The notes under the pieces are model-generated. The model saw nothing but the letters and a program-made list of their open reading frames with translations. It did no database searches and was not told the DNA's origin. From assembly GCA_036630325.1 (NCBI GenBank), contig CP142727.1, forward strand, positions 1,178,001 to 1,242,000: a stretch of 64,000 nucleotides of DNA, given 5' to 3'. Both the position numbers and the translations under genes were made by a program. Position 1 is the first letter of the stretch, and every line of letters starts with the position of its first letter. Of the stretch, positions 2,483 through 54,699 are shown piece after piece. Source of the DNA: Vairimorpha necatrix. Its lineage: Eukaryota.

Positions 2483-2801
2483 TAAGGAAAAACATACTCT
2501 TTGATGTAAAAGTTTTACGTTTTTGTTAGATCATTATAAATAAACCATTTATTTAATCATTTTACCTTGTATGTAATTAGCAATAAAGTTCCTGCGAAAT
2601 TGTTAAGGGAATAGGTTCAATTGAGAAAAACAATCTGAAGCACAAACAGATTTCTATTCACTGATAAAATTCTACTTAATTTTAATTGTGTAGCTATATT
2701 GTATCAAACAATTTTTTTATTTCATTATAAGAATAACATTTATAAGCTTCCTTTAAAATTTACACAAAATATAAAAAATTAAATTTTTTAATGCATCTAA
2801 T

Positions 2802-4952
2802 CTAACTGTTTAATATTCGTATTAAATTATCATGCAATTTAATCCCAGAATTGTCATTTAAAGCTTCAAAAAGAGCATTTTCTTTTAGAATAAGTCTCAT
2901 ATTTTTTAAACATTTTTCATATTTTGATTCTTCAACTGAAATATTTTGATATTTATTATCAAAGATGATTGTTAAAGTTTGTAATGCATATTCCATAGCA
3001 TTATTTAAAATATTTTTATTTATATTTTCTCTTAGTCGTTTTAGATAAATCGTTTCCAATTCTTTTTTATATTCTAGTATTGAATCTTCTTGTATTTCCT
3101 TTTTCATTGGATATTCATTAAATTTCATATCGATAACTTTAATTACCTCGTTATTTAATATTTTTATGAAATTATTTACCACTTCCTCATCAAAAAATAA
3201 TTCATTATAGGTATTTAAAGCATCTGACATGATTTTATTTAACTCGTCGTAGATTGTGGTTAAAAGTATTATTTGGTCAATTCTTTGCCTTTCGAAGGCT
3301 TTTAGATTTCTTTTCTGTTCATATTTTCTATCTTCCTCGATGTTTTCAAAGATATTTTTTTTTATAAATCTAATGCTTTTTTCTACTTCAAATTCATTTA
3401 AGCATAAGTTTGTGATAATTTCATCTTTTGTGTAATGCTCCTTACCCTTTTCAGAAATCAATGTTGTACTGATTGATTCTGTAAATAGCATATTAATTTT
3501 ATTGATGTAATCTAAAATATCCTTTTTATGTTCTATAATTCTTCCAATGTGAGTTTTTATTTCTTTCAATATATCTATTATATCAATGTATTCATTTTCA
3601 TAATTTTTCGTCTTGAGATGATCATTGATGTATTTTAAAGATTTTAAGATAGGTTCATCAGTTACATCATTTTCATTTAAAAATTCTTCTGCTTCTAGAA
3701 TTAAAAGAATTTTCATTAAATACGATTCAGAGTCATTAAAACTCAATAAATAATCTAATAATTTTTTTGTAAGCTCATTCTTATCAATTTCTATTATGTT
3801 TTCAGTATATTCATTTATTCCCGTTATTATATCAAAATCTTCTTTTTCAATCGCTTTTATGAATAGTAGTAAATACGCAAATATTAATTTTAAAGGCGAT
3901 TTTGGTCTATTTAAAAGTCCTAAAATGAGGAATTCAACCTTATTATATCTAAAAAACAATCTGTATAGAGATTCTACGACGTTATCTGCATCAATATCTT
4001 TTATATATTTTATTATCTTAATTTTTTTTTGAAATTTTGAATAAAAATTTTTATTACGATTAGATTTATTTTCAAAATTATATAAGTTTTCATGAAATCG
4101 AATATAATTGGGGCCTATTTCAATTTTAAATGTACCTTTAGAAACCAATTCGATTTTATCTAAATAACAATCTAAATTTTTACTGCAGAATCTTGTATTA
4201 AGATATTCAATATCAACGATTTTATATAATTTAGACAATACATAAAATATTTCTAGATTCATTTCATACATATTTTCTGTTTTTATCTCCATCGATTCCT
4301 CTATTTCTTTAGTATTTAACATAAAAAAGTAAAGTATCTTGTCTATAACGAGATATAAATTAAAATAATAAGCATCATCTTTTTTTATATAATGAGTATG
4401 TGATTTATGTATATCAATCTTGCCGTTTTTGTTGTAATTATATTTTTTTATGTCGGCAAATATTTTATTTATTGACATACAATTAGCACAAATGTTTTCA
4501 TAAAAAATCTGGTTAATTCGGGGTGATACTCTTCTTTCATGATTGTCTTTTTGAATAGATTCAATGATTTCTTTGATAATGGGGTATTTTTCATATTGCG
4601 AAGCGTAATATAATAACACAAAGGAATTATTGTTTGGTGTTTTGAAGATCTCTATTAATTTACTTTCTATTTCTTCTGTTATATCTTTTATAGATTTATC
4701 AACATAATTAACATTTAGAGAAATACTTATATATTTATTGTTTTCATCATATAAAAGATCTTCAAAAGTAAAACTAATATGTTCCCTGACTTCCCATAAA
4801 TAAATATTTATTTTGATATAATTTTTTTCATAATTAAACACAAAATAATCTCTTTCTTTTATTTTCATAGTGATATTGTCTTTTAATAAGTTAAAAATTG
4901 TTTCATTAGAGATCACAAAAGTCATAAACAACAATATTGTAGAGATATTCAT
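2802..4952 (-). CDS. Lineage-specific secreted protein, 716 aa; paralogue of 34734-36941 and 44405-46714
   Basis: Long intact ORF with ACCCTC-ATG context and a hydrophobic N-terminus (MNISTILLFMTFVIS). Shares blocks with the paralogues: KIKERDY, NKSIxDITEEIE, RYNKVEFL, FDIITG, SYLMKILLILEAEEFLNE. Confidence 0.9.
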   Translation of the reverse strand: MNISTILLFMTFVISNETIFNLLKDNITMKIKERDYFVFNYEKNYIKINIYLWEVREHISFTFEDLLYDENNKYISISLNVNYVDKSIKDITEEIESKLIEIFKTPNNNSFVLLYYASQYEKYPIIKEIIESIQKDNHERRVSPRINQIFYENICANCMSINKIFADIKKYNYNKNGKIDIHKSHTHYIKKDDAYYFNLYLVIDKILYFFMLNTKEIEESMEIKTENMYEMNLEIFYVLSKLYKIVDIEYLNTRFCSKNLDCYLDKIELVSKGTFKIEIGPNYIRFHENLYNFENKSNRNKNFYSKFQKKIKIIKYIKDIDADNVVESLYRLFFRYNKVEFLILGLLNRPKSPLKLIFAYLLLFIKAIEKEDFDIITGINEYTENIIEIDKNELTKKLLDYLLSFNDSESYLMKILLILEAEEFLNENDVTDEPILKSLKYINDHLKTKNYENEYIDIIDILKEIKTHIGRIIEHKKDILDYINKINMLFTESISTTLISEKGKEHYTKDEIITNLCLNEFEVEKSIRFIKKNIFENIEEDRKYEQKRNLKAFERQRIDQIILLTTIYDELNKIMSDALNTYNELFFDEEVVNNFIKILNNEVIKVIDMKFNEYPMKKEIQEDSILEYKKELETIYLKRLRENINKNILNNAMEYALQTLTIIFDNKYQNISVEESKYEKCLKNMRLILKENALFEALNDNSGIKLHDNLIRILNS

Positions 4953-13739: not shown

Positions 13740-14445
13740 TATATTTCAACGAAAACAATTCGATATTTGGCTATTATTAGCAATATCTTCATCTTTTTTT
13801 GTATCAAATGTATTTATTTTATGGAGTAAACATCGAAATCTCTTGCGTGATTTGGAATCATCATTTCATTTGTTCGTTTAATTTTTGATTAAATTTCTTA
13901 TTTCGTGAATTAAATTTGCATTTCAATCGCGTTTATATTGGCATCTTTATCATCAATTAATTTAGTGTCTTCGTCATTAATGGCAATAGTATCTTCATCA
14001 TCAATAACTCTAGTCGTGTTTTTTGTTTCATTTGTATCTTCTTTGTGGTCAGTTTAACTAAACTCTATACATGGTTCCCCGTTGCAAGATTTACGTTAAT
14101 GAATTACATTATATTTGATTGTCCATCATTATAATAATTTCACCTCTTTTGTGTGTTGACAAAATATTTTTTTTTTTAAAGAAATATATATTAAGTTATA
14201 TTTAATGCATATAGTTGATGTTTCAACTCTTCATTATTAAAAGTACTAAATTCAGATTTTATAAAAATTTTTACACAAAATAATTGGTACTTAATTGTTA
14301 GAGATACGCGAAGTTCGACAAATGAATTTTCTTTTGAAAGATTCATCGTCTAACACAAGAGCAGCAATTATTTGGCGCTGATTATGTACATCATATAAAT
14401 ATAAAGTACTACAAACAATTCCAATATAAACTATAAAATCAACAT
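13740..14445 (-). pseudogene. Degraded paralogue of the 15877-16608 surface-protein gene
   Basis: High nucleotide similarity to 16280-16608, e.g. shared GAGATACGCGAAGTTCGACAAATGAATTTTCTTTT, AGATTCATCGTCTAACACAAGA and CACCTCTTTTGTGTGTTGACAAAAT. Has the same CCC...ATG context but carries frameshifts and stops. The left boundary is approximate. Confidence 0.85.
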
Positions 14446-15876: not shown

Positions 15877-16608
15877 TCAGATATATTGTTTATGATGCAA
15901 ACAAAAAATAACGTGCATAGAAATGGAAATAAAAAATAAAATAGTACTCGTAGAAAAAGAAGAATTGTTATTCTCTGTTGGATAATCATGAGAAGTACTT
16001 TTTGATTCATTGTTTTTAGTATCAGATTCGCTTGAATTTATATCATGAAAGTCTTGTTTCTCGGATTGTTCTGTTATCATGGTATTGTATGAATCTTCTA
16101 ATAACATAACTTCTGTATTTTCAATTTTATCAATTACATTAGTATTTTCTTTCTCGGATTTTAGTACCTTGTTAAGTGCTTTCAAAGATTCTGCTTTTTT
16201 GGCCAATTTGACTGAACACCAGACTTTGTTCTTAATGTTAAGATCTACATTATTGTATATTACTTTATGATAATGTCCATAATTTATAATAACTTCACCT
16301 CTTTTGTGTGTTGACAAAATGTTACTATTATAAAAGAAAATGGTATTATTTTGAATATAATGAACACAAAGTTGCTGTTTCAAGTCTTCATTATCGAAAG
16401 TACTAAATCCGATTTCTTCATTAAAATTTTTACAATGAAATAATTGGTACTTAGTTGTTGGAGATACGCGAAGTTCGACAAATGAATTTTCTTTTACTGC
16501 AGATTCATCGTCTAACACAAGAATAGCAATGGTTTGGGGTTGATTATGTACATTATATAAATATAAAGTACTAAAAACCATTTTAATATGAACTAGAAAA
16601 ATCAACAT
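15877..16608 (-). CDS. Putative surface or membrane-anchored protein, 243 aa (signal peptide, globular domain, S/T/E/N-rich linker, C-terminal hydrophobic segment)
   Basis: ACCCTTAATATATAT-ATG start, N-terminal MLIFLVHIKMVFS and C-terminal ILFFISISMHVIFCL. Confidence 0.8.
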   Translation of the reverse strand: MLIFLVHIKMVFSTLYLYNVHNQPQTIAILVLDDESAVKENSFVELRVSPTTKYQLFHCKNFNEEIGFSTFDNEDLKQQLCVHYIQNNTIFFYNSNILSTHKRGEVIINYGHYHKVIYNNVDLNIKNKVWCSVKLAKKAESLKALNKVLKSEKENTNVIDKIENTEVMLLEDSYNTMITEQSEKQDFHDINSSESDTKNNESKSTSHDYPTENNNSSFSTSTILFFISISMHVIFCLHHKQYI

Positions 16609-16976: not shown

Positions 16977-18018
16977 GGCTAAAACAGCAATAGTGTAAAA
17001 AACATGGGGGTCCAAATTTTTAAAAAATTGCCCCTTTTTTAAAAAAGAAAGTGAATGCTGAGTAAGGAAGAAATTGAAAATTTTTACGAACGTCTACTAA
17101 ACAAGAATATAAGCAGAAATGTACAATGTTTTGTTGGAATACATCTAGAGTATCTAACGAAACGGCTTATTTGAGATGCAAGTTTCCCAAATGAAGGCTC
17201 GGATTTTTCAATTTGGAATAATACTTTATTTTCAAATAGTAAGATAGATCATCTTATTATTTGAAAATTTTTAATCTTAGGATATTGGGACTTTAAATAG
17301 CGCATATTTCTAAAATTTTGGACTGTAATATTCAAAATGTAAGTTATACACTTGAGAAATTATATAAATTAAAAATTTTAAGAAATATTTAAATAAGACA
17401 AAACAAATAGGAGGTGAAAATATTATAGTGGAGATCGATGAAAGCAAAATAGGTAAGAATAAATACCACAGCGGAAGATTGGTCAAAGGTTTTTGGTGTT
17501 TCGGGATGGTAGAAAAACAGTAGAAAAGAAGATAATCTTTGTCATAATAAATAAAAGAAACAAGGATACATTGCTGCCAATCTTATTTAAGCATGTAAAT
17601 TTAAAATCCATCATTCATTCCGATATGTGGAAGGCATATATGACTTTAAAAAGCCATTATGCGGACCATAGAACTGTTAATCACAGTCAAACATTTAGAA
17701 ATAATGAAACAGGTGTCCACACAAACACCATCGATTGGAATTAGAGATCTTTGAAAGCCTCTCTTCCCAATAGGTGTAAGAACATAGGAACTTTCAGAAA
17801 TCTATTTAACTTTGTATATGATTAAAAGAAATGAGAGTCAAGACACCTTTGAAACATTATTAAAATTGTGTTTTTGATATATTTTACCTATTTTAATGTT
17901 TATTTAATTACATTTTATTTTTTTTCTGAAATTTTCTCTTCCCTTCCTTTTTTAAAAAAGGGCAATTTTTTAAAAATTTTGATCCCCCATGGCTTTTACA
18001 CTAATGCTGTTTTTAGCC
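16977..18018 (+). mobile_element. Merlin (IS1595/ISXO2-like DDE) DNA transposon with pseudogenised transposase
   Basis: Imperfect ~70-bp TIRs (GGCTAAAACAGCAATAGTGTAAAA... / ...TTTTACACTAATGCTGTTTTTAGCC). Motifs IIVEIDESKIGKNKYHSGR, IHSDMWKAY, HRTVNHS and GVHTNTIDWN* occur with frameshifts and stops. The TSD is not clearly preserved. Confidence 0.9.
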
Positions 18019-18399: not shown

Positions 18400-19446
18400 A
18401 TGAATAAAAAATATCTCAATTGGACTGAGAAACATAAGCCGCTTAGATTTACAGATCTTGTTTTTGCAGAAGATGTTCATATCAAATTGTTGAATATATT
18501 TAAAGGATTAGATGACAAATCTGTAATAATCTTAACTGGTCCCGTGAGTTCGGGCAAGAGTACTCTAGTTAGAATAATGTGCGATCTTTTCAAGTATAAT
18601 ATAATAGAAAGTACTTGCTCTAGTAATACTATCGATAATAAAAAGAATATTATGGTTATAGAAGACGTAGAACAGAATTATAAACTTCCAAGTTATAAAA
18701 AATTTCCATTAATCATAACTTCGACATATAATTTGAGTGATAGAAATTTACAAAACATTTATAAAGCCAAAGATTTGAAAATTAATAACATCCATATCAA
18801 AAGACTAGACTACGATCTAATTAGGATTATAATTGATAAAATATACAAAATAGAAAAAATGGATTTCAAATCTTACACAAAACTAATAAAAAATTGTGAT
18901 TATGATCTTCGGTCAATTATCAATAACTTACAAATTAGGAATTTGAATTTAGTCAGTAAAGAATTTATAAATCCATATGATATTTTTACTAAACATCTAA
19001 AATGGAATCAATTCGATAATAAAAATATAAACTTTGTGTATTCTGCCTATATAAATGAAGCAACAAGCGTGGCATCAGACGCCTTTTCTTTATATGACAT
19101 TTTAGGCGAAAAATATTATTATTTGCCACTTAGCAGAGTTAACCAGAAAAGAAATAAAAATGTACAAATAATAAAAAACACTGAAAGCAAAAAAGAAAAT
19201 GTTTCTTACAAAGATCACTACTCTTATTTATTAAATGTAAAGACAAAAAGCCCCAAAAACATATTGTATTTAACTGAATCTATAAAAAGAAAATGTGTAG
19301 GCTTTACAATTGACGAAATACAAAATATAAAAAAACCAAAAGAAGAAGTTAGGGAATCAAACGAAAAATTTAGTTTTATTTATAAAAAAGGCGTATCTAA
19401 ATGTTGTAAGAGATATTTGTCTTTAGAGGAATTTATTAATTTGTAA
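18400..19446 (+). CDS. CTF18: CTF18-like alternative RFC clamp-loader large subunit (AAA+), 348 aa
   Basis: WTEKHKPLRFTDL (RFC box II), Walker A GPVSSGKST and CDYDLRSIINNLQ. The C-terminal FIYKKGVSKCCKRYLSLEEF resembles the Ctf18 tail YxEGFSNAVRKxV. ACCCTGTTC-ATG start. Confidence 0.8.
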   Translation: MNKKYLNWTEKHKPLRFTDLVFAEDVHIKLLNIFKGLDDKSVIILTGPVSSGKSTLVRIMCDLFKYNIIESTCSSNTIDNKKNIMVIEDVEQNYKLPSYKKFPLIITSTYNLSDRNLQNIYKAKDLKINNIHIKRLDYDLIRIIIDKIYKIEKMDFKSYTKLIKNCDYDLRSIINNLQIRNLNLVSKEFINPYDIFTKHLKWNQFDNKNINFVYSAYINEATSVASDAFSLYDILGEKYYYLPLSRVNQKRNKNVQIIKNTESKKENVSYKDHYSYLLNVKTKSPKNILYLTESIKRKCVGFTIDEIQNIKKPKEEVRESNEKFSFIYKKGVSKCCKRYLSLEEFINL

Positions 19447-19777
19447 GCATAAAATATAATTTATTTTGACATACAATTTTTTTTAAAAATGTGCAAACAT
19501 TAGTAATGTTGTTTAATATGTTATTTAAGATTTTTTTGAATATATCGCATCACAAAGAGAACGCCGTTATGATTTCTTTTTCATCAGAATATGTCTTCAT
19601 ATTTCTTCTGATTATCGCGACAGAAAAATTTATATTGTCAAACTGTTTATTATAATTTTCCATCCCCTCTTTTGGAAATGTTTTTAAATAGTTTTAGTAG
19701 CCAATCAAATACTTACATTTGTCGAAAGATGATTGGCTAGTTTTTGATGGGCTACGACATATATGTTTTATAAACTA

Positions 19778-20295
19778 CTAGCGTATGCTTTCCCGTTTTG
19801 AAAACGGGATAAATGTGTTTGTTTTATAATATGTCCCGTCTCGGTAAATTTTGTAAAAATTCCATTTTTGGCTGATTAAATTTGACAGAGTTTAGACATG
19901 ATTTTTAAAAATACTTTTTAGTGACATATAAGGAGTAATGTTGTTGTAAAACACTTAAAAATCATAATTAGATAATTTTGAATACTTCTAAGCTCAATTT
20001 TTGACACTTACATGTAAGATCTTCATTGGTTATATGTTTTTGCAATTTTTCTAGAAGGGTTAAATAAATTCTAAAAAACGATTCTGACGATATTTTGGAA
20101 CTGAGTTATACAAAAATAATAAATCTAATAAAAATGCATTAATATATATTATACGCACTTACAATTATCAAATTTAAGCACTGAGTTTAAATTTGATATT
20201 ACAATGACACAATAAGCTATAATAAGAAGTTTAATATTTTTAAAACCACAAAAAAGAGGGGTAAAAAATTAAATAAAATTCTTTTATATATATGA
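19778..20295 (-). mobile_element. Non-autonomous Helitron, unit 1 (518 bp)
   Basis: Minus strand starts TCATATATATAAAAGAATTTTATTTAATTTTTTACCCC, the same 5' end as the autonomous element. It ends with hairpin TCCCGTTTT-C-AAAACGGGA, 9 nt and CTAG, followed by T. Confidence 0.92.
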
Positions 20296-20298
20296 TGA

Positions 20299-20821
20299 CT
20301 AGCGTATGCTTTCCCGTTTTGAAAACGGGAATTAATATGTTTTGTTTTATAATATGTCCCGCCTCGGTAAATTTTGGTAAGTTTCCATTTTGGGATGATT
20401 GAATTTGGCAGGGTAAAGGCATGTTTATTAGAAATACTTTTTAGTAACATATAGAGAGTAAAGTTGAGTTAAAAACACTTATGAGTTATATTTAAAAAAT
20501 TTTGGGAAGTTCTAAGCTCAATTTTTGACACTTACATTCAGCTTTTTCTTTGGTTAATTGTTTTTTGGATTTTTCGTGGAAGGGTTAAATAAATTCTAAA
20601 AAACGATTCTGACGATATTTTGGAACTGAGTTTTCTATAAATAATAAATAGTTTAGAAAGGCATTAATATATAGTATGCGCACTTACAATTATCAAATTT
20701 AAGCATTGAGTTCAAATTTGATATTATAATACTTTAATAAGACCAAAAGTAATAGTTTAGAAATTTCAAAGTCACAAAAAAGAGGGGTAAAAAATTAAAT
20801 AAAATTCTTTTATATATATGA
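20299..20821 (-). mobile_element. Non-autonomous Helitron, unit 2 (523 bp)
   Basis: Same 5' TC terminus and hairpin-CTAG 3' terminus as unit 1; the interior is clearly diverged from unit 1. Confidence 0.92.
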
Positions 20822-20913
20822 TATACTAGTGTATACAGACCCGTTCTTAGAACGGGTTGTTTGTGTTTGCATGGGTACATGTTTTAATTTTATCACATTA
20901 TGTTTATTCTTTA

Positions 20914-21030
20914 AAAAAATGGCATAGTATCTGTACGCTCACGCCGCATTTTACCATCTTTTATCTCATCCTTATTGGAAAAAATGGCATAGTTCTTGTA
21001 CGCTCACGGCGCATTTCTCCATCTCTTGGC
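20914..21030. repeat. Tandem duplication (~65-bp period, 2 copies) in the Helitron 3' subterminal region
   Basis: AAAAATGGCATAGTATCTGTACGCTCACGCCGCATTTTACCATCT and AAAAATGGCATAGTTCTTGTACGCTCACGGCGCATTTCTCCATCT. Confidence 0.85.
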
Positions 21031-21032
21031 TC

Positions 21033-24000
21033 TTATGGGCCAATTAGTTCACGTAGAATTACATTTTTGACATTGCCCCCGTTTCCCCCCAACTTGACTC
21101 TCAAGTTTTCACTCTTCTTCACTCTTGACAAAGCTACGTATAATTGACCATGAGAAAATACATCCTCAGGCAAATACACTCCCACTTTGTCAAAAGACTG
21201 TCCCTGTGCTTTATGTATTGTCATAGCATATGACAATACCACAGGAAACTGTCTTCTTTTAAGTACAAACGGAAGAAGAGTGTCACTTGGCATCATGTCT
21301 ATCTTTGGTATAACAGCAAGGGTGCCCCTTCCCCTTCCTGTTATTATTTCACCTAAGATGTAATTATCTCTGAGACTTTTTATCTTCAATCTGGTCCCAT
21401 TTAATAATCCATTCTTAGGATCAATATTGCGTAACAACATCACTATTGCCCCTATCTTCAGTACTAACTTATGTGGAGGAAGTCCTGATGGCTGTTGCAT
21501 GTTCAAGAACTCAAGAGGAAATCTCAGTTGTTCTTCGATATCCTCTGATTCTATAGCATCAGAACTCACATATACCCTAGAAGATCCATTAAGTAGGTTT
21601 AACACTTTGGCATTCAATTCATTTGCATGTTCATTTTTGCTCGTTAAGATAATCTTATCAAACAAAGAATCATCACCTGCTTCAATTTTGATTGTTCCAA
21701 AAATGCTATCGACTATGTCTCCTTCTTCAAGATATTCTTTGGGTATCTCCACACATCCTTTACTATCTCTAGTACGCCCCTCACCTATATCTAACAACCA
21801 CTTATTAAACTCCAATTGATTGTAAGATCTCATATTCGTTTCAAGCTTCAGTACACAGACATGTACCCAAAGCCTTGAACTAATTAATGAGTTCTCGATG
21901 ATATCATTTGGAGTACCCTTCATTACAATGGTTGATGTCTGTCTAAAATCACCACCCAACAATAGAGTTTTCCCTCCAAAGATATCATCATTGTTACAGA
22001 GTCTTTTAAGCACCTCATCTATTGCGTTCAATGCATGTTTTGACATCATTGAAACTTCATCTATTAGCAATAAAGAGGCCTTTATTATTTTCTCTGCTTC
22101 GGGAGTATTTCTTTTTAATCTAGATACGCTGGTCTCTGTCAAAGGAACAGGAAGTTTCATACAACTATGCATTGTTCTTCCATCCTTTAATAAATCTGCA
22201 GCAATACCTGTGGTTGCCATCTGTATTGAAGATTTTTTATTCTTGTTTAAATACTCGGTCAGGACATTATATAGATATGTCTTCCCCGATCCTGCTGGTC
22301 CATCTAAAAAGAATAAATTGCCCTTTTTATCAATATTATCTGTTATTTTATCAAAAGCATCCCTCTGCTTTGCATTTAAAGAGGAGATCATCTGATCTAG
22401 ATCTTTTCCATTATCAGAGATAGTTTTTGCCTTCTCGATATAGTTAATCGGCTCATCTAAACCCAGAGCATTTAGACTCCATCCATGAGCATTAACTATA
22501 TCTTTTAATCTACTAATAACTTCGTCTCTACTATTCTGATCTAGATCTTCAGACATATCTCCAAGATACTTATCAAAGAGTTCTTTGGTATTTTTTGGCT
22601 TATTAAAAGCACAAATATATCCAAACAATGCTCTTATTATTGCTGGGGATTCGGTTGCTACTGCCTCATCCAAAGTCCTTTCCCATTCTTTGTCATCTTG
22701 AAGAAGTCCTCTTTCTTCAACCGCTTCTGCAAAAGAACTATAAACTATACCATTTACAGTTCTCAAATCATCATATGATCTAGCCCCCTTTACATTGATC
22801 AATAGGACTCTGAGGCTAAATCTTTCCTTCTCTGTAGGAGATACAGAATAAAGTCTAGTAATTATCTTGCTGTACTTATTCTTTCTCCTTATCCATTCTC
22901 CCCTTTTATATGTATAGTGATAGGGTATCTCACTATATGCAAATTGATTTGCCTCTTCATCAACTTCATTCAACTTGAAGTAGGCTAAAAGAGGGGTCTG
23001 TCTAAGATCAGATAATCTAACAGCTTCCTCTTCTTTCCCTTCTTCGAAAGTGATCAAGTGTTCTTGTGGAAGATGCACAGGAAGTCTATGGATCTTATGA
23101 GATCTCCCATGCATCTTGTATTCCATTAATCTCCAGGTAGCCTCTGGTGCTGAAACATATCTGGAATTCACAAAATGATCAATTTCATTGTTGTCGGTTA
23201 TTCTCATTTCTGCACAATCAAATCCCTTGTAAATATACTTGAAAATATACTTTACTGACTTGATAGAAGTACAAACTTCTACATTGATATGACAGTTGTA
23301 TTTTTCAAGCAAATAAGCATTATAGGGGACCACGTTAGCATTAGTAACAATGTTTCCCCTTACATTGTACTCGGTCCCTCTTATTCTTCGGTATTCAGGA
23401 TATCCGTCATTATTTATCTTTGTTTCAAAGTTATATTCTTTGGGATATTCTTTCGTGCAGACACCATTTTCCATGCATGGACTTGTCAAGTTACTTAGTC
23501 CACATGGTCCATGAATCATATGTTTTGTTACACAGTTGTGTAACATCTCATTGTCCATGGGTGATGGTATTTCTGCACTCACATACTTATCTATTCTTTC
23601 TTCATCCCGAATCTTATCCTTTAACATTATCAATATGTGAGCATGAGGAAGTCCACGTTTCTGAAACTCAATAGAATAGACATGAGCCTCAACTTCCCCA
23701 AATACTCTTCCTGACAAAATCTCCTCCATCATGCTTTTTAATTTTAAGTTGAAGACCTTTGCTACCAAATCAGGCCTATCAACTGCAGTTTGTCCCTCAA
23801 ATAGATTCTCCTTTATCTCCTTCCAATTTGGATTGCAAGTCATAGTAATGAAAAGATCGGGCTTTCCGAAATTTCTTACAATTGACATTGCATCATGGTA
23901 TCTCTCTCTCATATTTCTTGGAGATCCTTGGAAACTTGATGGTAAAATTACAGGCTTAGCATTACTTTCTATTCCATTATTTACATAATCTACTAAGCCT

Positions 24001-25337
24001 TTGTAAAGATCTACTCTCAACTTCTTCTGATTTAACTTTATGAAGTTTAAGTTATTTGCTTCAACTTGTAGATATGAATCTACAATCCATTGTTGAAATA
24101 ACTTTCCTCCATAAAGCAAAGGGTTGAATCTATCTTTTCTTATGGATATCTGTGCTACTTTGTATTGTAACAAAGATATCTTCTGTGATTCCCCATGATA
24201 AGACTCAATCCTTAAATTTGCATTCCACCCAGCTTCCCCATATGGATAGAACAAAGTATATGTCATGGGATCTAGATGGGGACTTAAAACATCCAAATGT
24301 AAATTATCAGAACTAAGACCCTTGCTATATACTTTAATGTCCCTCTCAAATGGTGGTTCTCCATTTGGATCAGTGAAAATCATTGCGATTTCACTTGTAG
24401 AGGGAGCGTTATATCTTCTCTGATCTCTTTCTAAATTCTTATTAAAGACCATAGAAATGTCTTTAACTTCTTTCCCCATTTCCTTTTGCTCCTTTACTAT
24501 TTCAGACATATTTTTATACGCATTGGAATATGGATTAGCAGATCTTATAAATCCATCTAATTTGCTCATGATATATATATCACAATTTCTATTAGATGGA
24601 TTCGTCATTCTTTGGGCATTTGCCATATCACTATCTACTACATATAATTGAGCATACTTCTTTGGTGTATTAGAGTCCATATTATTTACATTATAAGTGT
24701 TATGATACACTTGACCATGTATTTTAAATACATATGGTCCATTGGATACAGTTTCTATTTGAGCACCAAGAGAAGCAAAAGAAAGAGCAGCATTGTAGGA
24801 CCTAATATTGTCTCTGAAGTTTTTTGCATCTTTATTTTTTCCTATATATAAATTCTTAATGTCATCTGGGAAGTCTCTTGTTCTTTGTAATTTAACTTTC
24901 CCAAAATGACAGCAGCTTTTGTATAATCCATTGCTGCTTGCTTCTCCAGCAAAATGTAATGCACCACAAAAGCCACATTCTTCTTTCAGATCTCCACAAT
25001 AATGTTCGGCATGGTTTCTGCTAGTAATTCTGCATGCTACATCTAGTTTTTCTGTCAAGGTTTCTATTGTTGTGTTGTCTGCTAATCTAGCTGTTTTTTC
25101 TGTGTTGTTTGTTGGATTAAGAATTGTTTTGTTTTCGCCAGAGAAACTGAATATAAAATTCCTTTTTTTTGTTTCACCGACATTTGTTTTTTTATTTTTT
25201 GTGTTATGTACAGAGGCATTGGCCCCATAGAAAATAACATTGTCATTTTCAGTATTACTACATATCTCCTGAGAGATAGTGATAGTTGCTTTTGGTTGTT
25301 CACTAAAATCGCAATTTGTTTGATTTTTCGTAAGCAT
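21033..25337 (-). CDS. Helitron RepHel transposase (Zn-finger-like region, HUH/Y2 Rep nuclease, Pif1-family SF1 helicase), 1434 aa
   Basis: CGFCGALHF...CCHFG; LPSSFQGSPR; PDLFITMTCNPNW; HUH motif EFQKRGLPHAHIL; KYIFKYIYKG; Walker A GPAGSGKT; LLIDEVSM; GGDFRQ; GLLNGTR; RRQFPVVLSYAMTIHKAQGQS; HGQLYVALSRV. TACCCCCATT-ATG start. Confidence 0.97.
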   Translation of the reverse strand: MLTKNQTNCDFSEQPKATITISQEICSNTENDNVIFYGANASVHNTKNKKTNVGETKKRNFIFSFSGENKTILNPTNNTEKTARLADNTTIETLTEKLDVACRITSRNHAEHYCGDLKEECGFCGALHFAGEASSNGLYKSCCHFGKVKLQRTRDFPDDIKNLYIGKNKDAKNFRDNIRSYNAALSFASLGAQIETVSNGPYVFKIHGQVYHNTYNVNNMDSNTPKKYAQLYVVDSDMANAQRMTNPSNRNCDIYIMSKLDGFIRSANPYSNAYKNMSEIVKEQKEMGKEVKDISMVFNKNLERDQRRYNAPSTSEIAMIFTDPNGEPPFERDIKVYSKGLSSDNLHLDVLSPHLDPMTYTLFYPYGEAGWNANLRIESYHGESQKISLLQYKVAQISIRKDRFNPLLYGGKLFQQWIVDSYLQVEANNLNFIKLNQKKLRVDLYKGLVDYVNNGIESNAKPVILPSSFQGSPRNMRERYHDAMSIVRNFGKPDLFITMTCNPNWKEIKENLFEGQTAVDRPDLVAKVFNLKLKSMMEEILSGRVFGEVEAHVYSIEFQKRGLPHAHILIMLKDKIRDEERIDKYVSAEIPSPMDNEMLHNCVTKHMIHGPCGLSNLTSPCMENGVCTKEYPKEYNFETKINNDGYPEYRRIRGTEYNVRGNIVTNANVVPYNAYLLEKYNCHINVEVCTSIKSVKYIFKYIYKGFDCAEMRITDNNEIDHFVNSRYVSAPEATWRLMEYKMHGRSHKIHRLPVHLPQEHLITFEEGKEEEAVRLSDLRQTPLLAYFKLNEVDEEANQFAYSEIPYHYTYKRGEWIRRKNKYSKIITRLYSVSPTEKERFSLRVLLINVKGARSYDDLRTVNGIVYSSFAEAVEERGLLQDDKEWERTLDEAVATESPAIIRALFGYICAFNKPKNTKELFDKYLGDMSEDLDQNSRDEVISRLKDIVNAHGWSLNALGLDEPINYIEKAKTISDNGKDLDQMISSLNAKQRDAFDKITDNIDKKGNLFFLDGPAGSGKTYLYNVLTEYLNKNKKSSIQMATTGIAADLLKDGRTMHSCMKLPVPLTETSVSRLKRNTPEAEKIIKASLLLIDEVSMMSKHALNAIDEVLKRLCNNDDIFGGKTLLLGGDFRQTSTIVMKGTPNDIIENSLISSRLWVHVCVLKLETNMRSYNQLEFNKWLLDIGEGRTRDSKGCVEIPKEYLEEGDIVDSIFGTIKIEAGDDSLFDKIILTSKNEHANELNAKVLNLLNGSSRVYVSSDAIESEDIEEQLRFPLEFLNMQQPSGLPPHKLVLKIGAIVMLLRNIDPKNGLLNGTRLKIKSLRDNYILGEIITGRGRGTLAVIPKIDMMPSDTLLPFVLKRRQFPVVLSYAMTIHKAQGQSFDKVGVYLPEDVFSHGQLYVALSRVKKSENLRVKLGGNGGNVKNVILRELIGP

Positions 25338-27237
25338 AATGGGGGTAAAGGAAAAAAAAAGTATTTATAGTTTTTAAAATTAAAATTCCATTTTGGGAAA
25401 GAAGAAAACAAAAATGAGAAAATGATTTTTTATAAATAGCTTTGATATTAGTCTAAATATTAATTAATTGAGTTTGTTATTCAGTTGATAAATTTCTAAT
25501 GTTTGTAAATCAACTTTATTATGTTTATTTATTTTGATCGTATTGATTTTGATTTTCCATTTCGGAAGGAAGAATTAAAAAGGAGTAATGTGATTTTTAA
25601 AAATTAAGTATATTATCGAATTAACATTGCAGTGGTAAAGTTAATTCAGAAACAAATATAAATTCAATTGAGTTAATTTCACACATTAGCAACCAATTTT
25701 TTAATATTTGTGTCACATTGTTTTTGTTTTCTTTTTCTAAAAGAAATAAATTAAAAAGGAGAAAATCATATTTCTAAAAATTTCAAAAATGATTTATAAA
25801 TAAAATGTAAATATTGAAAGTGGTTGAAAATTGTCTATAAAATACAATTCAAGTATTCAAAATCATTTTTAAATCAAAATTAGCAATTTTATTTTTTTAC
25901 CATTTTTTATATTTTAGGGGTAAAAAATTAAATAAAATTCTTTTATATATATGATTTGTCTAATAAAAATATATATCACATTGGTAAAATTTGTTCAAAG
26001 TTTTTTTAATATAAATATATGCGAATTCAATTTTTCTTTCCACACTATAAATAAAGCAATTTAGGTAAAATTGTAATCTGTTGATTTGATATAAAAGATT
26101 TTGGTTTAGATTTCATGCCTTTCTGTAATTTGCTATAATTTATCATTGGTTTTTTCTCAAATTCGTTCGTTTTAGTATTTTTTGATATACATCCAAGTAT
26201 TAAACATAATTTATATATTTGTTGTACATAATGTATTATTAATTATCTATCTGTATTACACTTAAAAAATTTACTAAATTATTTTTGAATATAAATAATT
26301 TTGAAGAAAACCAATAACCTATACATATATACATATAAAAAACACAATTCGACTCAACTAAACACAATCCATGTGTAAGTAAATTTCATATATTTTTAAT
26401 TTTAATTAAACTACCATTAATATAAGAAAAATGACTTATTTTAGTTATTCGAATTAAAGATTACACAATAAATAAAAGAAAACGGCATTAGACAATTTTT
26501 GAAGCCCCCACTAATTTAAAAGCAAAAAAAATTGCATTGAAAAAATCTATTAAAATGAATTGGATTAGTTTTTTAAGATCAATAACAATAGTAATTACAT
26601 AAATATAGGTTCTAAAATTTTTTTTATACGCTATATAAAAGCTAAAAACTGCAATTTCTCACAAAAAACTGATACATAGTCATAAACTAAGCAAATTTTT
26701 TTTTCAATCTTATACACCAATAAGAGATAAAACCAAACAATTACATCTTTAGTATTGAAATTGAATATATGATTTTGAAAAAACTAAGCGTATAGTATTG
26801 AAAATATGTTTGTCTACCATTCAAACAAAAAAACGAGGTATCAGCAAGAATATGTTCCAAAATTTGGTTGTGTTTTAAACCGAATAGCTTGTATCACATA
26901 GGTAAAGAAAACGTATTTTTACAAAAATTATTTTTAATGTAACGACAAGTAAAAATAGCATCAAAACAATCAAAAATAGAATGATTTTAATTTAATGTCG
27001 ATACTTGGTATATCAATACAAAATTAGAGTCAAAATAACAGAAATATGAAATATATGTTGAAGCTTTACTAAGTTTTTATATTAATAGGTTAAAGATATT
27101 TTAAAAAAAACTAGAGCTCTGAGATGGTTTTTTAGCTTAAGCGCGTAACAAAAAATACTTTATTTTTTGTTATAAATAAAGTCTAATCATAAACTTTTCT
27201 ATATTAATTTTTTTTAATTCAATTTATTTTAAGCTTT

Positions 27238-28283
27238 GACTAAAATCAGCATTAGTGTGAAAAATTAGGGAGCCAAAAGTTTTAAAATCTTACCCTTTTT
27301 TTAAAAAAGAAAGGAATGCTGAGCAATGAAGAGATTGAAGATTTTACGAAAGTCTACTAAACAAGAAATATAAGCCGAAATGTACAATTTGCGGTTGGTA
27401 TATAGCTAAAGCATCAAACGAAACTGCGTATTTAGCTTAAGTATCCCAAATGCAAGCACTGATTTTTCAAATTAGAATAACACTTTAAGATCAAATAGTA
27501 AGATAGATCGTCTGCTTATGTTGAAAATTGTTAATTTGTGGATATTGGGACTTAAAAATAGCGCATATTTCAAGAATTTTGAATTATAATGTACAAAACG
27601 TAAGTTACACTGTGGAAAAATTACATAATTTATAAATTTATGACAACTATTTGAATAATCTAGGACATTAGGAGGCTAAGAAATCATTGTAGAGATAGAA
27701 GAAAGTAAAATGGGTAAGAATAAATATCATGGGGAAGATTAACTTTTGTGGTAACGGCATGGTGAAAAGAACTGAAGAAAAAAAAATAGTTTTCTTGATT
27801 GTAAAAAAAAAGCAGGAAATTATTGCTTGCGATCTTATTCAAGCACGTAAAGTTTAGATCCTTCTTTTATTCTGATATGTGGAAGACATATATAAATTTA
27901 AAGGATTATTTTAGGGACCATGAAATTGTAAAATATAGTCAAACATTTTGAAATAATGAAACGGGTGTCCATACAAACACCTTCGAAGGGGATTGGAGGT
28001 CATTGAAAGCCTCTATACCCATTGGACGTAAGACATATGACCTTGCAGATATATATTTGACTCTCTATATGATTAAGAGGAGTGAGAATCAGAATACCTT
28101 CGAAACATTGTTAAAATTATGTTTTTATTATTTTATCTGTTGAAATCTTATTTCTGCGGCGTTTTTTATACATATCCAGTTTTAGGTTTTTCTGAAGCTT
28201 TCTCTTCCTTTCCTTTTCTTAAAAAATAAATATTTTATTAATTTTGACCCCCTTATTTTTTTACACTAATGCTGATTTTATCC
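27238..28283 (+). mobile_element. Second Merlin transposon copy (same family as 16977-18018), pseudogenised
   Basis: TIRs GACTAAAATCAGCATTAGTGTGAAAA / TTTTACACTAATGCTGATTTTATCC. 8-bp TSD TAAGCTTT / AAAGCTTT (7/8). Motifs IIVEIEESKMGKNKYHG, YSDMWKTY and GVHTNTFEGDW. Confidence 0.92.
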
Positions 28284-28486
28284 AAAGCTTTATTAAAAAT
28301 GACGTATTGTTATGTTTAATTAATAATAATAATTCGTTTATTTATTTATCATTTATCAAATATATAAAACATTATAGTTAGACATATCTAAGTTAAGTGG
28401 TATTTATTTATAAAATATTGATTTGGATATTCAATCCACAACAATTATAAAATATGTATTTATAAGAATATATAAAATTATGATAC

Positions 28487-34733: not shown

Positions 34734-36941
34734 ATGATTACACCAAAATTTTTAATCTCATTTGGATTAATGGCGTCCAATCAGAATGTTTTTAATAATA
34801 TACAAAAAACGATACTTAGTAAAATACATAAAAGAGAATACGTTGTATTTGATTCATCTGCTTCTTACACTGTAATGGATATATGGATGTATGACTTTGA
34901 TAATACTATATCTTGCACGTTTACTGATGGATTTAGCGCTAGAAGAAAAAATGACGAGGTTGAAAATTTTAAAATATGTTATGAAAATAAATCTATTTGT
35001 GATATAACCGAAGAAATTGAAGCATATGTTAAAAAAATTTTACATTTTCCAGATAATAATCCCATCATACTAATATATCATAATTGTTATTGTGAGAATT
35101 ATTCCATCATGAAGAATGTTATAAATAATATTAAAAAAATAAATAGTGGAAGAAGAAAGAAAAAGAAAGGGAGTGAAATTTATTATGAAATCATTGCAGA
35201 ATCTGATTCTCACTTCAATACAATGTATAAGCATTTAAAAAAAACAAACACCAATGCTAGACATGATTCAGATCTTCCAAACTCCGCGGTTGATTATTTT
35301 AAATGCAATAATAATGACACTTATTATTTTAGAATTCGTATCATTGTATCGAAACTTTGCTATTTGTTTGAATTAAATATTAACGAACTCGATGTCAAAG
35401 AATTAAATTCCTTGGTTAAAATAAAAAAAGAAAATTATAAAAAAAATGACAAGGAAATACTTATCAATTTAATTAGCTTATTTAAAATACATGATCTTGA
35501 AAACATAAGCGAATCCCTTAAATTTGAGCATTGTACATTTAAAACAAATAAGATAGAAATAAAGTATTATAATTATTTTAAAGTAGAACTAAAAAATAAT
35601 GCTTTAATCTTTCAAGAAAATTCTAATGTACATTACAAATATTTAAAAAATAAGGAAAATCAGGGACATGAAAAAACATATATAGAAGAAAAAAACTTTC
35701 GTGATTTTAAAAATTTTTTAGATAAGGTTTATGAGATTAAAAACATAGACAATGGAAAAGGTGTAGAATTTTTTTACAGATTAATAAATAGACATAATAA
35801 AGTCGAGTTCCTAGTACTGAGAATTTTAAATAAACCAGGATCGGCTTTAAATTTGTTATTAGGATATCTTCTATTATTCGAAACCTTTATCCAAATGTAT
35901 GAATTTGATATCATTACAGGACAAGTTCGAGATGGACAAACTCAAATAGAAAATAGACAGGTCGTAATCACAAAATATATTAGTGGGAAAATATCGAAAA
36001 CAACATATGCAAAATCTTACTTAATGAAAATTTGTTTACTTCTTGAAGCAGAAAATTTTATCAACGAAGACGATCTAAGTCAAGATCTATTTTTCAAATC
36101 TCTAAAAAATATAAGTGTTCTAATGAATTCGAATTATGATGAAAATAATATTTTTATTGTGACGAAGATATTACAAGAGGTTCAAAATAAATATATCGAT
36201 GAAATCACAAGATATAAAACTGAAATTTTAGAAAATTTGTGTGATATCATCTCGAATTTAACATCTTTAAAAAGCACAGAATTCATAAATAGACAATTTG
36301 GCGATGGGATTATAACGAATATTAAGACTAATGAATTTGAAACAAGAGAAAATGTAAATCTTTTTATGAAAATCTTATTAAAAAATTCCAAACAAGATAA
36401 AAAATACGCAGAAGTGAGAAAAATAAATGAGAAGATTATGAAATATATCAAAGAAATCGCTGATAAAATAATATTATGCAATGAATCTAAACTAATAAGT
36501 TCAAAAGCTTTAGAAAAAAACAACATCAATTTATTAGTAGACGAAATTCGACAAAATCTCATTAAAGACTTAGTTAACGAAGGGATGAAAATGTTTGACA
36601 AAAAAATTCAAAGTTATGTTATTGAAGATGAGTTAATCAAGGACACGGTAAATAAGATAAAAAATGAATTTAAAAAAGGATTTACTCAGGAAATAAGAAA
36701 AAATGTAGTTGAAAATATAACAAATAATTTGGGGAGGTACTTGGTTAATCTGTTTTTTATACTTCTTGAGCCTAAGGCTAAAAATGAATTAAGTATCAAA
36801 TCTACGCAATGTAAACAAATGTTTGTAAATATACGGCCTATGTTAAGTAAAAATGTTTTAATGATATTAAATATGGAAATTGGTGGAAGGATTCATAATA
36901 TTTTAGTTGAAAAATTAGAAATATGTATAAATCAAAAATAA
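34734..36941 (+). CDS. Lineage-specific secreted protein, 735 aa; paralogue of 2802-4952 and 44405-46714
   Basis: ATCCCTA-ATG start and hydrophobic N-terminus. Shared blocks: RHNKVEFLVLRILNKPGSALNL, FDIITG and SYLMKICLLLEAENFINE. Confidence 0.9.
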   Translation: MITPKFLISFGLMASNQNVFNNIQKTILSKIHKREYVVFDSSASYTVMDIWMYDFDNTISCTFTDGFSARRKNDEVENFKICYENKSICDITEEIEAYVKKILHFPDNNPIILIYHNCYCENYSIMKNVINNIKKINSGRRKKKKGSEIYYEIIAESDSHFNTMYKHLKKTNTNARHDSDLPNSAVDYFKCNNNDTYYFRIRIIVSKLCYLFELNINELDVKELNSLVKIKKENYKKNDKEILINLISLFKIHDLENISESLKFEHCTFKTNKIEIKYYNYFKVELKNNALIFQENSNVHYKYLKNKENQGHEKTYIEEKNFRDFKNFLDKVYEIKNIDNGKGVEFFYRLINRHNKVEFLVLRILNKPGSALNLLLGYLLLFETFIQMYEFDIITGQVRDGQTQIENRQVVITKYISGKISKTTYAKSYLMKICLLLEAENFINEDDLSQDLFFKSLKNISVLMNSNYDENNIFIVTKILQEVQNKYIDEITRYKTEILENLCDIISNLTSLKSTEFINRQFGDGIITNIKTNEFETRENVNLFMKILLKNSKQDKKYAEVRKINEKIMKYIKEIADKIILCNESKLISSKALEKNNINLLVDEIRQNLIKDLVNEGMKMFDKKIQSYVIEDELIKDTVNKIKNEFKKGFTQEIRKNVVENITNNLGRYLVNLFFILLEPKAKNELSIKSTQCKQMFVNIRPMLSKNVLMILNMEIGGRIHNILVEKLEICINQK

Positions 36942-38311: not shown

Positions 38312-39887
38312 ATGTATTAATATATTCTTAGTTTCTTTTTGGAATTTTTAATTTTAGTCTAACAGCTTCTTTATATTTTAAACGGCAAATTGATGTATTT
38401 GACATAAAACTCAGTATTTTTTTTATAATTTATGTATAAATATGACTTAAATATTTAAAACTTTTATCTTCTTAATGAGCAATTTTTCAAAATTTTCGTT
38501 TTTTATATACATTAATAGGAGTATAAATTAAATGATTTTAGCCATATGAAACAAATAAAGAGTATTATAATTTTGATGATTTTGCTAGAGAATTTTGTAT
38601 GATATAAATAAAATTAAAAATTGAACCAATGGATTATTTTTTATACACATTTCCTTTGTTTCCCGATGCCTAATGAAATTATATATGACAATAATAGAAA
38701 TATACAAAAATAAAGACAAATGTTTATGTTCTATTTAATTTATCTATATGGTACACATTTATACATGTATGGTTGGAAGAAGGCGATAAAACAATTACAT
38801 ATGCATTTACAAGTTAAATAGTAAAAATAAAAATTAGTATTTAAAACGAATTAATCCGTGAAATTTTAGAAGCGGCCGAGAGAAATACAAAAATTTACCT
38901 TATAATTTTTTATAATGATGCGATTGTAATATATGTGACAGATGTGATCATAAGAATATTTCTTTTACGAAGTTTGTTCTCGAAAATTTTAAAAAATTAA
39001 ATAGTGGAAGAGGTCTGAAACTAAATGTAGTGAAATCAAATAAATAATTATTGTATAGATTGACGCTCTTTCGTTAAATTGTTCTAAAAACTAATAGAAA
39101 AAATTATAATCTTACATATGAAACATATATTCCTATTCTCTCAGTTACTCAGATTATCAACAACTATAATACATTTTGTTTTAGATTTATGTTGAAATAA
39201 ATAACGTCTGATATTTATTAAAATGAATCATACCGAATTTAATTTATTACATGCTATAAAACCGAAAATAATAATATAATAAGAAACTAAATTCTAAAAA
39301 TTGAAGAGATTATAAAAAATAAATGATCTAAATATCTTTATGAACTATTTGATTTGTCTCATTGCGAATTCATACAAGACAAAATTGTTCTAGATTATCT
39401 TAATGGCAGCTAACTAGAAATAAAAAATCATTTTTATATTTTTAGATAAGATTGAAAATGATTTTATTCTATAATTAATATTCTAATCAAATGAATAAAA
39501 ACCTCGTATATACTTTTTTTTAATATTTAAAGTATAGATTACGGCAAAGATGTTTTATCGCATTATAAAACGCAACAACAAAGTAAAGCTTTTTATAATA
39601 AAAATTTTGAATAAATCTGGTTCAATAATAATTGCCTGCTCGGCTATTTATTTATGATTATAAAAAAGTATGGATTTGATATCATACAGGAAAAATTAAA
39701 ACGTGGAAACTGATATAGAATATATTTATAAGGAAATCACAATTTATAACATATGGCTAAGCATATTTATTAAAAATGTTTACTTTTAGAAGTAGGAATT
39801 TTCATCTGCAAAAATAATGCAAGACAAGATCTATTTTTAAGAACTTAAAAAATATTTTAATTAAATAAAATTAATTTATAATTAAAA

Positions 39888-40399
39888 CTAGCGTATGCTT
39901 TCCCGTTTTGAAAACGGAATTAATATATTTTGTTTATGGCATGTACTTCCTCCTATATTTTTTGAGTTTCCATTTTTGGTTTGAATAAGAAAAAGAAAAA
40001 GTATGTTTTAAAAACACTTTTTATGAACATTTAAGGAGTACAATGAAGTTGAAAACACTTATGAATCTCAATGAGATATGTTTAAAACTATTAAATCTCA
40101 GTTTTTGAGACTTACAATTAATTTCTTCTTAGTTAATTGTTTTTTGGAATTTTTCTAGAAGGGTTAAATAAATTCAAAAAAACGATTCTGACGATATTTT
40201 GGAACTGAGTTTTACAAAACCAAGAATTAAAATGTAAATGCATTAATATATAATATATGCACTTAGAATAGTCAAAATCTTTCAATGAGTTTATATTTGA
40301 TATTACAATAACACAATAAGCTGTAATAAATAGTTTAGAAATTTCAAAGTCACAAAAAAGAGGGGTAAAAAATTAAATAAAATTCTTTTATATATATGA
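39888..40399 (-). mobile_element. Non-autonomous Helitron, unit 3 (512 bp)
   Basis: CTAG at 39888-39891 with an adjacent hairpin; conserved 5' terminus ends at 40399. Confidence 0.92.
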
Positions 40400-40919
40400 C
40401 TAGCGTATGCTTTCCCGTTTTGAAAACGGGATCTAAATGTTTGTTTTATAATATGCACCTCCTTTATCTTTTTGTGAATTTTCATTTTTTGATGAATGAA
40501 TTTGAAAAGGAAAAAACATGATTTTGATAAATACTTTTTAGTAACATATAAGGATTAAAGTTTAGCTAAAAACATTTAATAATTATAATAAGATAATTTT
40601 GGGAACTTCTAAGCTCATTTTTCGACACTTACATTCAATTTCTTCTTTTGTCAATTATTTTTGTGAATTTTTTCTAGAAGGGTTAAATAAATTCTAAAAA
40701 ACGATTCTGACGATATTTTGGAACTGAGTTTTACAAAAATAATAATATGAATTAAAATGCATTAATATATAATATACGCACTCACAATTATCAAATTAAA
40801 ACGTTAAATCTATATATGATATTTTATTAACGTAAAAGGCTTAAAATATATCGTTTAGAAATTTCAAAATCACAAAAAAGAGGGGTAAAAAATTAAATAA
40901 AATTCTTTTATATATATGA
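40400..40919 (-). mobile_element. Non-autonomous Helitron, unit 4 (520 bp), abutting unit 3 with no spacer
   Basis: Junction reads CTAG|TCATATAT on the minus strand. The pair is flanked by host A (39887) and T (40920) with no TSD. Confidence 0.92.
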
Positions 40920-54551: not shown

Positions 54552-54699
54552 GGGTAATTATTTAAGAAATATTTATAAAAGTAACTTATCAATATATTAT
54601 AATATATCACGATATTTTTGACACATACCGTACTCCTTCATTTTATTCGTTTTTTTATCGCATGGAATTTATAAAAATTTGCGTTCAATTTAATTTAAT

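Follow-up and report, generated by a model that had tools for sequence, protein, structure and literature searches.

End-to-end chains of diverged, intact-ended Helitrons in the microsporidian Vairimorpha necatrix

The target choice of Helitrons is still little understood, and the end-to-end stacking of unrelated Helitron copies is, to our knowledge, known so far only from isolated cases. Here we describe two chains of Helitrons in the microsporidian Vairimorpha necatrix (assembly GCA_036630325.1, contig CP142727.1, positions 1,178,001 to 1,242,000). This whole stretch of 64,000 nucleotides is called the window below, and all positions are counted from its first letter.

Consecutive insertion of Helitrons next to each other's ends is not new, having been published for maize in 2008 and noted in fungi in 2016. 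For two divergent maize Helitrons lying head to tail, consecutive insertion was proposed, the later element entering between a host A and the first element's T (Du et al. 2008, PMC2267711; cited here, like most of the papers below, from excerpts). In fungi, one FoHeli4 copy lies inserted upstream of another, 2 bp from its 5′ end, and three tandem copies in Metarhizium acridum were ascribed either to insertion into the 5′ end twice or to rolling-circle replication (Chellapan et al. 2016, PMC5148889). Other tandem Helitrons have been read as rolling-circle concatemers: the Helibat arrays of bats (Pritham & Feschotte 2007, cited in PMC2267711 and PMC5876387), centromeric arrays in plants (Xiong et al. 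2016, cited in PMC5876387 and PMC5148889) and tandem arrays in Xenopus (PMC12001565). The initial annotation of this window started from the premise that tandem Helitrons are usually explained as concatemers, which is incomplete, because the available text of PMC2267711 and PMC5148889 gives insertion alternatives. For microsporidia, the literature searched, part of it in excerpt, yielded no account of Helitron arrays.

The window contains five canonical Helitrons, all on the minus strand, in two chains that run in the same direction. We suggest, in a judgement that stands about evenly balanced, that each chain arose from separate integrations, in which new copies landed at or next to the ends of Helitrons of the same family already in place.

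Anatomy of the two chains

The elements, the spacers between them and their main internal features are as follows.

Chain 1
20826..25954, minus strand: autonomous Helitron, 5129 bp, 5′ TC at 25954 and 3′ CTAG at 20829-20826 (searches for the termini)
21033..25337, minus strand: RepHel open reading frame (ORF), 1434 aa, uninterrupted (ORF and Pfam searches)
20835..20860, minus strand: 3′ subterminal hairpin of the autonomous element (-9.1 kcal/mol, z -5.7)
20822..20825, minus strand: 4-bp spacer TATA, from the CTAG of the autonomous element to the TC of unit 2 (read from the sequence)
20299..20821, minus strand: non-autonomous unit 2, 523 bp (terminus searches and blastn)
20296..20298, minus strand: 3-bp spacer TCA, from the CTAG of unit 2 to the TC of unit 1 (read from the sequence)
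19778..20295, minus strand: non-autonomous unit 1, 518 bp (terminus searches and blastn)
19791..19809, minus strand: 3′ subterminal hairpin of unit 1, 8-bp stem (-9.3 kcal/mol, z -5.7)

Chain 2
40400..40919, minus strand: non-autonomous unit 4, 520 bp, its CTAG abutting the TC of unit 3 with no spacer (terminus searches)
39888..40399, minus strand: non-autonomous unit 3, 512 bp, with the longest branch of the four small units (12.2%)

Read along the minus strand, chain 1 consists of the autonomous element, TATA, unit 2, TCA and unit 1, and chain 2 of unit 4 followed by unit 3, with the joint CTAG/TC at 40400/40399 (here and below, a slash within letters marks a boundary). The joint is exact, with no intervening bases, at one of the three junctions, that of chain 2; the spacers at the other two are 3 and 4 bp long. 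The initial annotation had given the junctions as CTAG/TATA/TC, CTAG/TCA/TC and CTAG/TC, and these matched throughout, coordinates included, when re-read on the minus strand. Its description of chain 1 as a mixture of autonomous and non-autonomous elements was likewise correct, the element with the intact RepHel gene standing at the head of the chain. A blastn search of the window with all five elements found no further Helitron copy or fragment; all five Helitrons therefore lie in chains, as had been claimed, with the same orientation throughout, and no Helitron in the window is nested within another.

At the outer flanks of both chains, a host A precedes the outer TC and a host T follows the outer CTAG, which is the insertion between A and T characteristic of canonical Helitrons. 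Target-site duplications are absent there, as judged by inspection of the flanks. The three insertion sites of chain 1, all of them A/T, fall within a single 7-bp stretch of host sequence.

The termini place the elements among the canonical Helitrons (Helitron1 type, TC...CTRR), since 5 of 5 begin with TC and end with CTAG. A 38-nt 5′ terminus occurs five times without a mismatch, ending at 20295, 20821, 25954, 40399 and 40919, against an expectation of 0 matches in 100 shuffles. The 30-nt 3′ terminus, which comprises the hairpin and CTAG, is found four times without a mismatch (at 19778, 20299, 39888 and 40400), and the autonomous element has a 3′ terminus of its own, related yet distinct, with a single occurrence at 20826. 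Only the first 39 nt are common to the autonomous element and the small units (blastn). Also present is the GC-rich subterminal hairpin that canonical Helitrons carry about 10-12 nt upstream of their 3′ terminus. Folding of three such ends gave z values of -5.7, -5.7 and -3.2, and for each of them, including unit 1, 0 of 200 shuffles folded as well. The hairpin sequence of unit 1 is identical in units 2 and 4; that of unit 3 is the sole weakened one, its stem having 6 bp instead of 8.

A/T boundaries make up 12.8% of the positions in the window. By a hand estimate for five elements in 64 kb, an insertion placed at random among the A/T sites would coincide with the 5′ boundary of a resident element, and share its orientation, with a probability of about 3e-4. 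Because the random rate is so low, three junctions of 0-4 bp are far beyond chance, and the stacking is non-random.

Diverged units and recurrence of the exact joint

The four small units are 78.7-84.2% identical in pairwise comparison. The two pairs of neighbours are 84.2% and 78.9% identical, that is, 15.8% and 21.1% different overall and 18.7% and 24.9% different in internal columns, which bears out the earlier statement that neighbouring units are divergent internally. The variation is confined to the interior. In the four-unit alignment, none of the 79 terminal columns (the first 49 and last 30) varies, compared with 41.6% of the 445 internal columns; if the termini changed at the internal rate, their invariance would have P 3.7e-19, and 0 of 200,000 column permutations reproduce it. 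For the neighbour pairs, 14.8 and 19.7 terminal differences would be expected at the internal rate, and 0 were observed. The change on the terminal branches amounts to 8.0, 7.8, 12.2 and 8.9% per unit. Because the termini are invariant despite this internal divergence, the units represent separate sources that had already diverged. As these alignments are read here, each unit evidently arrived intact-ended and competent for transposition, from a lineage already distinct.

Stacking of this kind is also seen outside the assembly. Logan contigs of two public runs from two studies (X1 and X2) were aligned to positions 18400-27400 at 80% likeness, with 923 contigs aligned from X1 and 783 from X2. 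De Bruijn contigs break at repeats, so that they provide no census, and their summed word depth is not a copy number; beyond the matches listed, 288 loose ends and 1709 pieces exist. The left flank is represented in X1 by a 1128-nt contig with 2 differences over 18400-19484, and because it is almost unchanged, X1 is the same species or a very close one. In X2, the flank is represented by short fragments that differ at 1 and 6 positions. A single place (20454) is overlain by as many as 24-25 distinct contigs, and the Helitron family holds many diverged variants in both runs. The summed depth of the small units is 26,000-62,000 in X1, versus 275 on the flank, and 266-1216 in X2, versus 2-4.

A form that lacks the 3-bp spacer at 20292 is equivalent to the exact CTAG/TC junction. 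Among the matches listed, this form occurs in five contigs of X1, with a depth of 14,313 out of 109,775 (13%), and in four contigs of X2, with 814 out of 4,630 (18%); two more X2 contigs pass from the 5′ end directly into CTAGCGTAT. Exact head-to-tail joints therefore recur in several sequence contexts, far above random expectation, and they probably involve a minority of termini. Solitary Helitron ends exist as well, because some contigs pass from the 3′ end into unrelated sequence.

Apparent skips and returns of about 513-575 bp in the alignments were considered as deletions and rejected, as they are paralogous copies split between unit 1 and unit 2. In X1, cover is slight or absent over the right flank and a large part of the RepHel body, and such holes prove nothing. 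Exact scans of metagenome_contigs, genome_contigs and viral_contigs with the 38-nt 5′ terminus gave 0 matches. Just outside the 3′ end of chain 1, about 290 bp (19485-19777) look repeated in X1: the single-copy flank contig ends at 19484, and the bin 19303-19603 has a depth of 4311 versus 275. This segment has no second copy within the window, and it contains a long-loop palindrome ending in CTAG on the plus strand (19700-19740).

One internal block is nearly invariant in the small units.

20054..20107, minus strand: nearly invariant internal block in unit 1, alignment columns 190-243 (unit alignment)

Its other copies lie at 20579-20632, 40158-40211 and 40677-40730. A search of Rfam with 19400-21100, which covers the block, gave no match at gathering score, and two sub-threshold matches (23.5 vs 80 and 17.7 vs 34) were put down to chance, being far under the gathering scores. 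The small units contain no conserved ORF, only short, non-conserved ones of 36-77 aa.

The RepHel gene and the growth of the chains

The product of the long ORF in the autonomous element matches Helitron_like_N (2.7e-62), PIF1 (3.5e-55) and Pif1_2B (1.9e-17) in Pfam, and this copy thus combines the Rep (HUH, two tyrosines) and PIF1-like helicase parts of a canonical Helitron. In its translation there are H-A-H, Y-x-x-x-Y and GPAGSGKT motifs, which we take to be the HUH-type, double-tyrosine and Walker A motifs. Mutants of Helraiser at Y727/Y731 and K1068 have been described (PMC5876387). Homologues of the RepHel were numerous (2816 of 7998 scored candidates at E<=0.001), and among the matches listed all had the same domain pair or its helicase half. 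A pattern search of metagenome_contigs returned 288 stretches, among which three RepHel loci were confirmed, on short contigs and with 32-36% identity.

The coatomer-alpha protein encoded in the window is closest to a Logan protein (61%), followed by those of Vairimorpha bombi (59%) and Nosema granulosis (48%), with Encephalitozoon proteins at about 40%; this places the window in the Nosema/Vairimorpha group of microsporidia and accords with the compact parasite genome of which the initial annotation spoke. RepHel ORFs and a load of Helitrons are known from microsporidia (PMC4202319, PMC12558613). Among the matches listed, the nearest named relatives of the present RepHel are arthropod records, led by Papilio xuthus (64% over 76% of the query region) and followed by Cordylochernes and Folsomia; the best full-length match (56%) is on an ENA contig. 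As far as such similarities go, an arthropod-like RepHel would fit horizontal transfer between host and parasite, which has been discussed for the Lep1 Helitrons of Nosema bombycis (PMC4038834) and for microsporidian transposons (PMC4202319). The Lep1 elements also came into consideration as a conceivable identity of the small units. A 65-bp tandem duplication, with copies 80-86% alike, occupies 20907-21032, downstream of the RepHel stop codon and ahead of the 3′ hairpin. In X1, the summed depth is 3-215 over the RepHel body (21109-25021), below the 275 of the flank, and 1655-4652 over the 5′ non-coding part of the autonomous element (25022-25954), depth being unreliable here. There may be other non-autonomous derivatives that share the autonomous 5′ region, and the autonomous copy itself may be rare or polymorphic in X1.

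Because the 5′ ends are identical and the 3′ hairpins related, one RepHel could mobilise all five elements, and the intact RepHel in the window is a candidate for that role. The targeting of resident ends by RepHel and the direction of growth we infer from the arrangement of the chains, as follows. RepHel normally nicks at the 5′ end of a Helitron, separating its first T from the preceding host A. If this A/T nick site of a resident copy were used as the target, which would be the simplest route to an exact joint and the likeliest cause of the stacking, an incoming element would be joined there, and the product would be host A, new element, CTAG/TC and resident element. Each element would land in the same orientation at a resident terminus, or within 3-4 bp of it, and arrays would thereby extend on their 5′ side. 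The spacer junctions would reflect integration at a neighbouring A/T while the enzyme was engaged with the resident end. Purified Helraiser transposase has been reported to cleave the plus strand of a junction between right and left terminal sequences (RTS-LTS) precisely at the junction point (PMC5876387).

At the exact junction of chain 2, the sequence agrees with canonical insertion, placed between a host A and a resident 5′ T. Under the A/T rule, this junction allows addition on the 5′ side only, since addition on the 3′ side would require insertion at G/T, an argument made already for maize (PMC2267711). The initial annotation had proposed independent insertions directed to existing termini, with the A/TC nick site as the target. 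Non-random stacking, divergent neighbours and separate sources bear out part of that proposal; the nick-site target agrees with the exact junction of chain 2 and not with the 3-4 bp spacers of chain 1, and so with one junction of three.

The 3′ flank of chain 2 has a possible bearing on the direction of growth.

39859..39887, minus strand: 5′-terminus-like flank directly 3′ of unit 3, 23/29 matches in the register of an exact junction (register scoring)

Outside the Helitrons, 0 of 14,704 A/T sites reach the score of 23/29, the maximum being 21. Judged by this resemblance, the flank may be either the stub of an older, mostly deleted third unit or a founder target that happened to look like a 5′ end. 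In the same register, the flank of unit 1 in chain 1 scores an ordinary 13/29, with 3958 of 14,704 sites equal or better. Together with the longest branch and the weakened hairpin of unit 3, the 5′-like flank agrees with the oldest unit lying at the 3′ end, although these are weak pointers. Directly beside chain 2, at 39650-39855, lies a decayed fragment of an ORF family that has two long paralogous members in the window (34734-36941 and 44405-46714; 735 and 769 aa, no Pfam match), to which it is 74-75% identical over about 110 and 69 nt.

Several observations weigh against stepwise growth by integration at resident ends. The nick site itself is occupied at only one of the three junctions, and in chain 1 the spacers allow either order of insertion to obey the A/T rule. 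The 5′-like flank of chain 2 was noticed post hoc, aligns weakly to the paralogous host gene and loses its distinction when 38 nt are scored instead of 29, 16 of 14,699 sites then matching as well. The initial annotation had itself counted neighbours that are each other's closest relatives as evidence against its proposal, and the four-unit tree leans that way, with the neighbours grouped together in 1435 of 2000 bootstraps. This lean is weak and not significant, and so small a sample of a large family, four units, is little guide to how neighbours are related. The contig depths suggest that most 5′ termini lie outside an exact junction, and among the matches listed no contig of X1 or X2 joins across a unit or a chain. 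Stepwise growth is deduced from one assembly, and the same end product would result from assembly of the arrays before integration.

This last alternative holds that a heteromultimer or composite integrates as a whole at an ordinary A/T site. RepHel might join the CTAG of one excised element to the TC of another, sometimes with bases of the donor flank, or bypass of a 3′ end might mobilise an existing pair as a composite. RepHel is reported to make precise RTS-to-LTS joints, as well as aberrant ones with DNA upstream of the LTS (PMC5876387), and the latter could account for the spacers. The outer A and T flanks are canonical for each chain as a whole, and the contigs with the exact junction have depths far above that of the single-copy flank contig, as a spreading composite would give. 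Nevertheless, neither pair in the window duplicates the other, as copies of one dimer would: their junctions differ, and unit 2 and unit 4 (82.7%) and unit 1 and unit 3 (79.2%) are no closer to each other than other pairs are. The distinct exact-junction contigs among the matches listed (five in X1 and four in X2) imply several combinations of neighbours. Joining between molecules is, moreover, a step for which the literature searched, in the portions available, contained no demonstration in any Helitron. We consider assembly before integration unlikely, while giving it more weight than the explanations that follow.

A passive pile-up, in which insertions gather at local A/T-rich hot spots or survive only in transposon islands of a gene-dense genome, seems improbable to us. 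The setting would suit it: the genome is compact and AT-rich, with 22-36% GC per 2-kb bin and many long ORFs, the insertion sites of chain 1 all lie in one 7-bp host stretch, and a pseudogene fragment adjoins chain 2. Such a pile-up leaves the precision of 0-4 bp and the uniform orientation unexplained, however, and it does not explain why about 2 kb of non-autonomous DNA, tolerant as it is, contains no nested insertion, or why the exact junction turns up in several contigs from both runs.

Tandem Helitrons in bats and plants are usually explained by a rolling-circle concatemer (PMC2267711, PMC5876387, PMC5148889): termination fails, identical units are produced in a row, and they later diverge in place. 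The exact, circle-type junction of chain 2 and the weak grouping of neighbours in the quartet would agree with such an origin, but we regard it as very improbable. Changes accumulating in place would number about 29 in the 79 terminal columns over the four copies, and 0 are seen (Poisson P(0) 2e-13); this invariance excludes a decayed concatemer of identical units, as does the mixing of autonomous and non-autonomous elements in one chain, where a 5.1-kb element stands beside 0.5-kb units with which it has 39 nt in common. Two of the three junctions contain spacers, and the neighbours are not near-identical copies with divergence spread over the whole unit, as a concatemer would predict. Finally, an assembly artefact of a repeat-rich region is scarcely credible. 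Identical ends do make the units repetitive, but within a chain no two of them have the same sequence, independent contigs from the two runs, each of a different study, show the exact junction as well, and the window lies in a 1.49-Mb contig.

Returning to separate integration at resident ends, we can put forward a more specific form of it only tentatively, and hold it to be possible rather than probable: that RepHel prefers resident 5′ nick sites, that unrelated members of the family are stacked unit by unit on the 5′ side, and that a substantial share of copies, about 1/8 to 1/5 if depth is a guide, sits in exact joints. A preference for resident nick sites, if true, would amount to self-homing, the safe-harbour behaviour raised by the initial annotation, through which a transposon of high copy number would spare the genes of a compact genome. 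If a small genome of this kind does contain many intact-ended copies, and a sizeable part of them sits in exact joints, it would offer a convenient natural system for measuring the end targeting of RepHel, and one that could separate such targeting from concatemer formation. For the annotation of microsporidian genomes, it is also relevant that these arrays are stacks of separate elements and not one long element or a satellite.

Other repeats and comparison with described systems

Outside the chains, the window contains three further sets of repeats. Two copies of an element of about 1 kb (16981-18013 and 27219-28302), about 80% alike, have terminal inverted repeats of 75-98 nt and a broken ORF containing VEIDESKIGKNKYH, presumably the remains of an IS1595/Merlin-type transposase. 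A segment of about 300 bp is duplicated 2.16 kb apart (14129-14438 and 16284-16600), with the copies 80-89% alike, and at 54486-55138 clustered units of about 76 bp share the palindrome-like core TTTTAACAAACAAA.

The nearest counterpart of the chains is the maize pair (PMC2267711), which, in the passages available, likewise consists of divergent neighbours in the same orientation with a perfect CTAG/TC (G/T) junction. The small units of V. necatrix conform to this type, found at maize r1, in being divergent, head to tail and in one orientation. The maize elements differ in that they are large, bear gene fragments, number two and show occupancy polymorphism by PCR among inbred lines; the present chains occupy a microsporidian genome, with non-autonomous units of about 520 bp, three elements including an autonomous one in one chain, and spacers of 3-4 bp at two junctions. 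More generally, maize Helitrons are reported to insert preferentially close to or within others of their kind (Yang & Bennetzen 2009, as related in the excerpted text of Dong et al. 2011, PMC3288121), and the elements of this window likewise cluster beyond chance.

The fungal cases are similar in that insertion at, or within 2 bp of, a resident 5′ end was considered against rolling-circle tandems (PMC5148889). As far as the excerpts describe them, those are isolated cases, and their elements are of Helitron2 type with terminal inverted repeats, whereas the present ones are canonical, with TC...CTAG ends and A/T targets. The arrays of bats, plants and Xenopus share the head-to-tail arrangement with a perfect 3′-to-5′ junction. 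They are described, in the portions of the accounts at hand, as one repeated unit or internal minisatellites, in contrast to the intact-ended neighbours found here, which are 16-21% divergent and include a mixed chain. The RTS-LTS junction of the Helraiser circle (Grabundzija et al. 2018, PMC5876387) is matched in form by the CTAG/TC joint of chain 2. In that circle, going by the same excerpts, the two ends belong to one extrachromosomal element, whereas the joint of chain 2 connects two different elements within a 1.49-Mb contig.

The chains of V. necatrix thus extend a known arrangement, in clean form, to a new group of hosts, with a three-element chain that includes the likely mobilising element, and the recurrence of the joint in other samples hints that exact stacking is frequent in this family.

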